Sequence record: PQ471515.1
Source of the DNA: Escherichia phage Turkey3
DNA length: 64,000 nucleotides
Reading direction: 5' to 3' (one strand)
Part shown: positions 41,654 to 42,952 of the stretch, one piece after another
Position numbering within the stretch: position 1 is the first letter of the stretch
Layout of the letters: every line of letters begins with the position of its first letter
Program-made: the position numbers and the translations under genes
Notes under the pieces: generated by a model
Told to the model about the DNA's origin: nothing
The model's input: only the letters and a program-made list of their open reading frames with translations
Databases searched by the model: none

Positions 41654-42952
41654 ATGCCAGCTAAAAAAACAACTGAACAATTCATTAAAGACGCAAAAGA
41701 AAAAAGAACTGACATTGATTTTGATTATAGTAAAGTTAATTATATTAATTCTTTTACAAAAGTAACTATTATTGATCCTGAATTTGGTGAGTTTGATATT
41801 ACACCCAATCACTTTTTAAGTGGTAGTGGGCATCCTATCCGTGGTGGTTCATCTAAAAAAACAACAGAACAATTTATTAAAGACGCGAAAGAAAAAAGAA
41901 CTGATATTGATTTTGAATATAGTAAAGCGGTGTACGTTAATTATAGAACAAAAGTAACTATTATAGATCCTGAATATGGTGAGTTCAGTGTTACACCAAG
42001 CAACTTTTTAAGTGGTAGTGGGCATCCTTCTAGATCTATTAATAACGATATTGTAAAAAAAACAAAAACAACAGAACAATTTATTAAAGAAGCAAAAGAA
42101 AAGAGATCTGACATTGATTTTGATTATAGTAAAGTTAATTATATTAATACTAAAACAAAAGTAACTATTATTGATCCTGAATTTGGTGAGTTTGATATTA
42201 CACCGAAAAGCTTTTTAAGTGGTAGTGGGCATCCTATCCGTGGTGGTTCATCTAAAAAAACAACAGAACAATTTATTAAAGACGCGAAAGAAAAAAGAAC
42301 TGATATTGATTTTGAATATAGTAAAGTTAACTATGTTAATAACAAAACAAAAGTAACTGTTATAGATCCTGAATATGGTGAGTTCGATATTACACCTAAT
42401 AGTTTTTTACGTGGCTGTGGGCATCCTAGAAGGGGAGGTAAAGCTAAAAAAACAACAGAACAATTTATTAAAGACGCGAAAGAAAAAAGAACTGATATTG
42501 ATTTTGAATATAGTAAAGTTAACTATGTTAATAACAAAACAAAAGTAACTGTTATAGATCCTGAATATGGTGAGTTCAGTGTTACACCAGATGATTTTTT
42601 AAGAGGTAGTGGGCATCCATTGCGTGCAGGTTATTCCCAGCAATATGCATATGTTAACATTATTTCAGACAACGATTTACCTATTGCTTTAAAATATGGT
42701 ATTGAAAAACAAAAAGGAAAACGTGTTAAGCAACAAAATAAAAAATCATTATTTAAAGTAAAACTAATTTGTGTATATAGTTTCCCAACTGTGATAAATT
42801 GTAAGGAAGCAGAAAAAGAATGCAAGAGACTATTTGGTAATGGTATCTTGTCTAAAAAAGAAATGCCAGATGGATATACAGAAACAACTACAATCACTAA
42901 TTTAGAAAAAATTTTATCGATCTATGAAAAGTGGGGTGGTGTAAAACAATAG
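41654..42952 (+). CDS. protein with five tandem 60-65 aa repeats
   Basis: 432 aa; repeat unit KKTTEQFIKDAKEKRTDIDF[DE]YSKVNY[IV]N..TKVT[IV]IDPE[FY]GEF..TP..FL.GSGHP.RGG occurs five times with a 185-195 bp DNA period. Confidence 0.75.
   Translation: MPAKKTTEQFIKDAKEKRTDIDFDYSKVNYINSFTKVTIIDPEFGEFDITPNHFLSGSGHPIRGGSSKKTTEQFIKDAKEKRTDIDFEYSKAVYVNYRTKVTIIDPEYGEFSVTPSNFLSGSGHPSRSINNDIVKKTKTTEQFIKEAKEKRSDIDFDYSKVNYINTKTKVTIIDPEFGEFDITPKSFLSGSGHPIRGGSSKKTTEQFIKDAKEKRTDIDFEYSKVNYVNNKTKVTVIDPEYGEFDITPNSFLRGCGHPRRGGKAKKTTEQFIKDAKEKRTDIDFEYSKVNYVNNKTKVTVIDPEYGEFSVTPDDFLRGSGHPLRAGYSQQYAYVNIISDNDLPIALKYGIEKQKGKRVKQQNKKSLFKVKLICVYSFPTVINCKEAEKECKRLFGNGILSKKEMPDGYTETTTITNLEKILSIYEKWGGVKQ

Follow-up and report, generated by a model that had tools for sequence, protein, structure and literature searches.

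In the 64,000-nucleotide stretch of Escherichia phage Turkey3 considered here (PQ471515.1; the whole stretch is called the window below), the gene at 41654..42952 is likely to be a free-standing homing endonuclease gene of the CapR/DUF723/DUF4379-T5orf172 family, with five zinc-less DNA-binding modules. The relevant features, beginning with the open reading frame (ORF) itself and giving positions in the protein in amino acids (aa), are these.

41654..42952, plus strand: coding sequence of a 432-aa homing-endonuclease-like protein (ATG start; 49 kDa, isoelectric point 9.1), from the ORF listing and PHROG matches
41663..41854, plus strand: repeat 1, aa 4-67; zinc-ligand equivalents D41, F44, H60 and R63, with F54 in the conserved-His column
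41855..42061, plus strand: repeat 2, aa 68-136; D105, Y108, H124 and R127, with a linker (INNDIVKK) 5 aa longer
42062..42253, plus strand: repeat 3, aa 137-200; D174, F177, H193 and R196
42254..42445, plus strand: repeat 4, aa 201-264; D238, Y241, H257 and R260
42446..42637, plus strand: repeat 5, aa 265 to about 328; D302, Y305, H321 and R324
42638..42949, plus strand: nuclease domain, aa 329-432, with a predicted, divergent GIY-YIG fold of the T5orf172/MUG113 type

The first-pass annotation of this DNA had described five tandem repeats, and both dissection of the 432-aa ORF into units and a hidden Markov model (HMM) of the repeat bear this out: run against all six frames of the 64-kb window, the model gave five matches, all inside 41654..42952 and none elsewhere. 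Tandem Repeats Finder delimits an array at 41661-42618 (period 192, 4.9 copies, 82% matches, score 1221), together with a two-unit period of 399 bp (85% matches) in the same array. The units start at 41663, 41855, 42062, 42254 and 42446, giving DNA periods of 192, 207, 192 and 192 bp, so the 185-195 bp originally proposed holds for three of the four intervals and fails for the other. In pairwise comparison the five units are 81-92.5% identical in nucleotide sequence and 73-89% in amino acid sequence, the closest pairs at the nucleotide level being repeats 1 and 3 (92.5%) and repeats 4 and 5 (90%), and their computed consensus (.KTTEQFIK.AKEKR.DIDF.YSK..Y.N..TKVT.IDPE.GEF..TP..FL.G.GHP.R) agrees with the motif written down earlier. 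Alternative-frame ORFs within the array (e.g. 41820..41957, 42219..42356 and 42375..42548) were set aside as echoes of the repeat that had no support of their own.

What kind of protein is this? The whole sequence matches PHROG 559 ('HNH endonuclease'; expect value (E) 3.7e-78) and PHROG 681 ('endonuclease'; E 3.8e-75). It has 3,834 database homologues, the best 120 of which carry a precomputed assignment to PF05265 (DUF723), and most of these to PF14311 (DUF4379) as well. With phmmer, the whole protein matched one such relative, P0002, at E 1e-172. In a Pfam scan P0002 and a second relative with canonical modules, P0063, matched DUF4379 (PF14311), DUF723 (PF05265) and CapR (PF21817), the CapR match being significant for P0002 and weak for P0063; DUF4379 is described in Pfam as a 'probable treble clef zinc finger'. 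The five repeats align in register with canonical repeats with a single 1-residue indel, and single repeats from the window reach E values of 1e-15 to 1e-17 with an HMM trained on zinc-containing repeats only. When a profile of 159 zinc-less repeats was compared with one of 638 canonical repeats by hhalign, the two aligned in register across 60 columns (probability 99.9%, E 2.7e-35). On these alignments, the module shares descent with the DUF723/DUF4379/CapR treble-clef zinc module. The early suggestion of a likeness to a module found next to homing-endonuclease domains thus stands as to the likeness, to which the hhalign result speaks directly; 'next to' needs amending, as the protein is itself an endonuclease. 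Homology to a nuclease-associated module, the lack of which had been named as grounds for dropping the suggestion, is present. Among solved structures, the whole protein and the repeat profile had no sequence match, and the repeat had no Foldseek match at E<0.1.

The non-repeat tail is, from its sequence relationships and predicted fold, the nuclease domain itself, which makes the protein an endonuclease. It had been described as Cys-rich, a description that does not survive counting: about 104 residues (aa ~329-432) contain only three Cys (C373, C383 and C390). An exhaustive HMMER search with aa 320-432 gave a family of 549 clusters at 50% identity in which this region is always C-terminal. 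Among the 61 members that were scanned (E<=0.01 for the nuclease models), CapR was found upstream in 49, DUF723 in 20 and DUF4379 in 15, and the tail itself was recognized as T5orf172 in ten and as MUG113 in three. Y333, K347, G349, R357, C383, E387, D406, G407 and E410 are invariant in all 61. Compared by hhalign with the T5orf172-like tails of other zinc-less proteins (...YKIGIT..ERF...E..IL...G.TELF), the tail aligned at E 1.2e-4, its K-Y-G-I, R and E being paired with their Y-K-I-G-I-T, R and E. The conserved catalytic residues of GIY-YIG enzymes (a Tyr in strand 1, a 'YIG'-like x-G in strand 2, an Arg in helix 1 and a Glu ahead of the last helix) are represented by Y333, K347-Y-G349, R357, E387 and E410, the last probably the counterpart of I-TevI E75. 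An AlphaFold2 (AF2) model of repeat 5 plus the tail has a mean predicted local distance difference test score (pLDDT) of 90.4 and the order strand-strand-helix-strand-helix-helix, and so is predicted to have the three-stranded sheet and flanking helices of a GIY-YIG fold. Against predicted viral structures, Foldseek returned 123 matches to this model at E<=1e-3 (best E 1e-23); the top matches cover both domains, and those that bear names (zinc-ribbon, CapR homology, T5orf172, GIY-YIG and homing endonuclease) come from phages RaK2, PNJ1809-36, ESCO13, K64-1 and UB. When the tail alone served as query in a word-indexed protein search, one identical fragment came back and nothing further.

The unusual feature of the protein lies in its modules. 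The earlier statement that the equivalents of DPEFG and GSGHP are zinc-ligand positions proved accurate, since the canonical modules read C-P-E-H-G and G-x-G-C-P-x-C at these places, and the zinc-binding cysteines are missing, as claimed, in five out of five repeats. Where canonical modules have C-P-E-H-G ... H-L-x-G-x-G-C-P-x-C, those of the window have D-P-E-[FY]-G ... F-L-x-G-x-G-H-P-x-R; the four zinc ligands (C-x2-H/C ... C-x2-C) are therefore lost, to be replaced in all five by D-x2-[FY] ... H-x2-R. The sole Cys of the array, C255 in repeat 4, is outside the ligand positions. A survey of 817 repeats from the 121 best proteins found the full C-H-H-C-C signature in 613 and all three Cys ligands in 643, and 159 repeats were zinc-less. 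The latter stem from about 30 proteins, 19 of them wholly zinc-less. Their former ligand columns are nearly uniform: of the 159 repeats, all have D in the first, 157 have Y or F in the second, all have H, N or S in the third, and 156 have R in the fourth. The prolines beside these columns are better conserved than in zinc-containing modules. Once the ligand columns were masked, 137 of the 159 zinc-less repeats had another zinc-less repeat as their closest match in a different protein, and the window repeats were 60-69% identical to the nearest zinc-containing repeat.

Might this merely be a degenerate, non-functional DNA-binding array, in an element on its way to becoming a pseudogene? Decay is a common fate of homing endonuclease genes, the copy of this gene in phage WPEC5 is distributed over three ORFs with truncated repeats, and conversion of Cys to Ser in CapR causes loss of DNA binding (PMC8096241). 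However, the same four replacements recur across about 30 proteins, in 159 repeats, with D and R nearly invariant; the repeats are under purifying selection (ratios of nonsynonymous to synonymous substitution rates of 0.2-0.56 among repeats and, in comparisons of orthologues, of 0.15-0.24 for the tail); the ORF in the window is intact; and zinc-less and zinc-containing modules occur together in the long intact arrays of proteins P0005-P0007, which mix eight zinc-less modules with one zinc module. Moreover, the breaks in the WPEC5 copy may be assembly errors, and AF2, provided with an alignment of zinc-less sequences only, folds each repeat confidently. We regard decay as very improbable: judged by these patterns of conservation, the replacement of the ligands is a systematic, conserved variant.

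In the structure prediction that had been proposed as a check, each repeat was modelled from that alignment as a helix, a beta-hairpin and a short helix with pLDDT 85-92. The full-length model has pLDDT 85.3 and a predicted template-modelling score of 0.33, and its linkers are disordered (pLDDT <50 at aa 65-67 and 130-136), so that the array as modelled is a beads-on-a-string arrangement. The residues that differ among the five window repeats are concentrated at repeat positions 24, 26, 28, 29, 43/44, 47, 48, 51, 53 and 57, and these same positions are hypervariable across the family, in zinc-less and zinc modules alike, making them candidate determinants of specificity.

How could the fold be held together? 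An Asp-Arg ion pair, with an aromatic filler and a polar residue, would join the two knuckles in the absence of metal. It is tempting to go further and to see in the zinc-less modules a natural, metal-independent re-engineering of the treble-clef finger that still reads DNA, with the invariant Asp-Arg pair and one aromatic and one polar residue standing in for the tetrahedral zinc site and little else altered, but we put this forward tentatively, as a possibility rather than an expectation. If it were so, zinc-less arrays, varying at a few set positions, might provide a compact, cysteine-free scaffold for modular DNA recognition that is insensitive to redox conditions and metals, and whose repeat number and specificity would evolve fast through recombination. 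A further proposal, that the modules still hold a metal through a non-Cys site (Asp and His, often with a second His in relatives), draws on the many zinc-less repeats outside the window that read D-Y-H-H-R, with Asp and two His near the former site. In the window, however, the second His is Phe in 5/5 repeats, which leaves at most two potential ligands; relatives often have Asn or Ser in the third position; and a cation would be repelled by the Arg that is invariant in the fourth. Altered-metal fingers are, to our minds, extremely improbable.

To our knowledge, the D-[FY]-[HNS]-R solution has not been described before. Our literature searches turned up no description of the zinc-less form, and the paper of Barth, Nguyen & Seed (2023; PMC10448857), who described homing endonuclease genes of the T5orf172 type that encode tandem CapR/DUF723 domains, their enrichment in nuclease islands, and recombination between repeats, nowhere uses the words 'cysteine' or 'jumbo'.

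The surroundings of the gene speak for mobility. The phage belongs with the Asteriusvirus-like jumbo coliphages of the 121Q/phAPEC6/slurp01/BF17 group, and the genes neighbouring the endonuclease gene are 97-100% identical to those of WPEC5 and BF17; the gene itself has only one megablast match among 50,697 phage records, in WPEC5. By blastn, the BF17 locus (L002) is colinear with the window up to 41320 and again from 42960, with flanks 97-99% identical, and has 115 unrelated bp (L002 4595-4709) in place of the intervening segment. There is, then, presence/absence polymorphism at one locus among close relatives. The following features and gene orders are relevant (AAA denotes the AAA-like gene).

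40917..41354, upstream of the endonuclease gene: denV (Pfam Pyr_excise; PHROG endonuclease V)
41321..42959, plus strand: segment missing in BF17, comprising the last 34 bp of denV, a 71-aa ORF and the entire endonuclease gene
Window: g89, HNH remnant, denV (145 aa), orf71, endonuclease (5 repeats), orf80, orf471, orf365, AAA-like 256-aa gene
BF17: denV (171 aa), orf80, orf471, orf365, AAA; endonuclease gene absent
WPEC5: as in the window, the array about 490 bp longer, with truncated units, and split into three ORFs; a second, degenerate array after orf80
L004: denV (171 aa), orf119, orf79, endonuclease P0004 (4 repeats), AAA; the endonuclease gene is one slot downstream
L003: g89, intact HNH (137 aa), endonuclease P0003 (3 repeats, 74% identical), AAA; no denV
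L005, from a distant phage: 7-repeat homologue P0001, two genes upstream of the AAA homologue

The number of repeats at or near this locus is therefore 0, 3, 4, 5 or about 8, and is 7 in the distant homologue. Copy-number change, which had been anticipated from the tandem arrangement, is evident in these relatives, in place of the fixed number that would have spoken against it. A scan of IMG/VR yielded three distant loci only (39% identity), of no use for comparing copy number.

The gene is thus patchily present in a variable nuclease island beside denV, a distribution that homing would fit. We picture five independently folded modules of about 64 aa on flexible linkers that would form a DNA-binding arm, each touching a small part of a long, asymmetric target by way of a handful of hypervariable residues on its surface, with the C-terminal GIY-YIG-type (T5orf172-like) domain cutting nearby by means of Y333, R357 and E410. 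When a carrier and a related gene-less phage infect the same cell, the enzyme would cut the gene-less allele, and the gene, along with the markers that flank it, would be copied over as the break was repaired from the carrier genome. Unequal recombination between units that are 81-92% identical would shift the copy number and presumably the target specificity.

Several observations weigh against this interpretation. The Pfam models for DUF723, DUF4379 and CapR match neither the whole protein at E<=1 nor a single repeat at E<=10. The protein has no match to T5orf172 (PF10544), and its score against MUG113 (PF13455; 18.3 bits, E 0.0035) is under the gathering cut-off of 22.3 bits. The left breakpoint relative to BF17 matches no recognisable site. 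Retention of DNA binding in the absence of zinc is an assumption based on conservation and on the confident predicted fold, and in CapR, changing four Cys to Ser abolishes DNA binding (PMC8096241).

It may also be asked whether the gene has been domesticated, so that it no longer homes and serves as a sequence-specific weapon that cuts competing related phages or satellites, in the manner of the T5orf172 nuclease Odn of ICP1, or as a regulator whose array represses transcription, in the manner of CapR. Members of the family have been co-opted in conflicts between phages and their satellites (Odn and CapR: PMC10448857, PMC8096241), and the Turkey3 gene has a strong sigma-70-like predicted promoter of its own and an intact ORF under purifying selection. 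Yet a pure repressor is hard to reconcile with a nuclease domain that retains all family-invariant residues, and presence/absence together with slot-hopping, seen here between genomes that are almost identical, classically marks a selfish element and not a fixed accessory gene. Domestication therefore seems unlikely to us, and a mobile homing endonuclease remains the explanation that we favour. PADLOC matched no defence model.

Some further observations concern the arrays and their vicinity. The 3' end of denV exists in two alternative forms (window 41320-41354 vs L002 4594-4706), which diverge from the left breakpoint of the insertion onward: a 145-aa form in the window and WPEC5, where the endonuclease gene is directly downstream, and a 171-aa form with an acidic extension in BF17 and L004, both of which lack the endonuclease gene at that position. 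The second array of WPEC5 (L001 7400-8440) consists of degenerate zinc-less repeats, with inverted fragments at 8118-8440; a T5orf172-like remnant (8579..8899; ...GDGCTETF...) comes after it. The repeat type of this second array also accounts for about 490 bp inside the first WPEC5 array, which suggests either exchange between the arrays or misassembly. Whole-phage contigs assembled from short reads (352-358 kb) stop inside zinc-less arrays: L009 and L010 (E. coli O157 assemblies GCA_036253035.1 and GCA_036252695.1), and L011 and L012 (phage ECO103 4-12-1). In L009 and L010 the contig ends inside this very endonuclease gene, L010 being 100% identical to window positions 42578-43253, and a separate 2-kb contig contains further repeat units and a related tail. 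Because related short-read assemblies end in such arrays, the broken WPEC5 copy may be an artefact of assembly, and present data cannot give the true number of repeats in every case. The arrays are thus assembly end points in related jumbo phages, as well as marking a hotspot of gene turnover beside denV.

Just before the endonuclease gene, and again just after it, is a 33-bp promoter-plus-hairpin element, GGGTTGACTTCGGTCAGCCCTTTTTGCTATAAT, whose copies in the window are all on the plus strand.

29922-29954, plus strand: copy of the element
36559-36591, plus strand: copy of the element
40856-40888, plus strand: copy of the element
41579..41611, plus strand: copy 43 bp before the ATG of the endonuclease gene
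42963..42995, plus strand: identical copy 11 bp past the stop codon, exactly where the segment that BF17 lacks ends on the right
45723-45755, plus strand: copy of the element

These six copies compare with 0 expected from shuffles; the element precedes denV and the AAA gene as well as the endonuclease gene. A sigma-70 promoter scan found TTGACT, an 18-nt spacer with TG, and TATAAT, matching 11 of 12 consensus positions, and the element also includes a GC-rich hairpin (GGGTTGAC/GTCAGCCC) followed by T5, the hairpin and T-run taking in the -35 box. It may therefore act as both promoter and terminator, and it looks like a fused terminator and early promoter delimiting gene cassettes. Rfam gave no family in 40000-47000.

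Between orf80 and the AAA-like gene are two overlapping plus-strand ORFs, of 471 aa (43251..44666) and 365 aa (44617..45714), which among phage records match BF17 alone (100% identity) and have no Pfam, PHROG, NCBIfam or PADLOC match; a search of 5.8 billion proteins with the 471-aa protein returned solely the identical BF17 protein. By eye, the 471-aa protein has T5orf172-like C-terminal motifs (MYKLGHTTKTSRR, FEKTIL and GDGHTETF) and CxxC pairs, and it was considered as a member of the tail family, for which it was not significant with either tail HMM. Other relatives have different genes in the slot between orf80 and AAA, for a CapR protein of 447 aa, a protein of 547 aa or a zinc-less endonuclease with 4 repeats, or else have a degenerate array there. 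On the other side of the locus, a 45-aa plus-strand ORF (40775..40912; MKKCIILCSNHHRMVHSGRLCLIERKKG...) is what an internal deletion has left of a 137-aa HNH endonuclease gene, which is intact at the same position in the metagenomic relative L003 (3525..3938), a locus without denV.

Database scores for such proteins call for some care. Peptidase_C58 (35.5 bits vs a 23-bit cut-off), Muted, SLATT_fungal and YopT TIGR01586 all gave hits, each covering 20-50 residues within one repeat; these were rejected, because the scores sum five weak repeat matches and because the catalytic context does not fit. Tandem repeats swell whole-sequence HMMER scores, Peptidase_C58 and YopT TIGR01586 being reported with just 20-24 residues aligned, and summed scores of this kind are a trap for automated annotation. 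Since Pfam and NCBIfam miss or mis-hit such proteins, zinc-less arrays of jumbo phages are left as 'hypothetical', and some records are mislabelled.

How does the Turkey3 protein compare with known systems? I-TevI and the Seg proteins of T4 have an N-terminal nuclease and a DNA-binding region that is not a tandem array of one type, and sequence similarity to them is undetectable. Loss of zinc ligands has parallels elsewhere, and in the U-box and in Topo_C_Rpt the fold is retained and polar or charged residues replace the metal. The zinc-chelating residues have been lost in the U-box, as against RING, and in other treble clefs (PMC4999995), and likewise in the Cys-free Topo_C_Rpt, as against Topo_C_ZnRpt, tandem C-terminal repeats of type IA topoisomerases (PMC9369019); both families are unrelated to the window module. 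Closer at hand, P0063 (504 aa; matching phage TH47, MT446416) has five modules by the repeat HMM and a tail that is 59% identical, of the same length, and ends likewise in ...YEKWGGVKQ, but its modules keep the Cys/His ligands (CHHCC-type) and match Pfam DUF4379, DUF723 and Zn_ribbon_HMPTM, whereas those of the window do not.

The nearest described counterparts are the ICP1 gp165/gp174-type proteins (PMC10448857), which are alike in having tandem N-terminal modules of about 60 aa and a C-terminal T5orf172-type GIY-YIG domain, in being encoded by free-standing genes in a variable nuclease island, and in changing repeat number by recombination. They differ in that the Turkey3 protein has D/[FY]/H/R for C/H/C/C in all five modules, in that the Pfam models for the module and for T5orf172 miss it, and in that its phage is a jumbo coliphage of Asteriusvirus type. 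A selfish nuclease gene within a nuclease island is nothing out of the ordinary for a phage, and the overall design was already known; it is the clade of zinc-less modules that is modestly novel. Its most instructive comparison is with CapR, the capsid-operon repressor of the Vibrio cholerae satellite PLE (Netter et al., 2021; PMC8096241), which belongs to the same superfamily of DNA-binding modules and is the only member with direct evidence of binding (by electrophoretic mobility shift assay). CapR has no nuclease domain, and needs for DNA binding a CxxC...CxC zinc site that the window modules lack. The zinc-less clade amounts to a clean natural experiment: CapR is dead when its Cys are changed to Ser, yet in the clade a fixed D/[FY]/[HNS]/R set appears to replace the zinc site.

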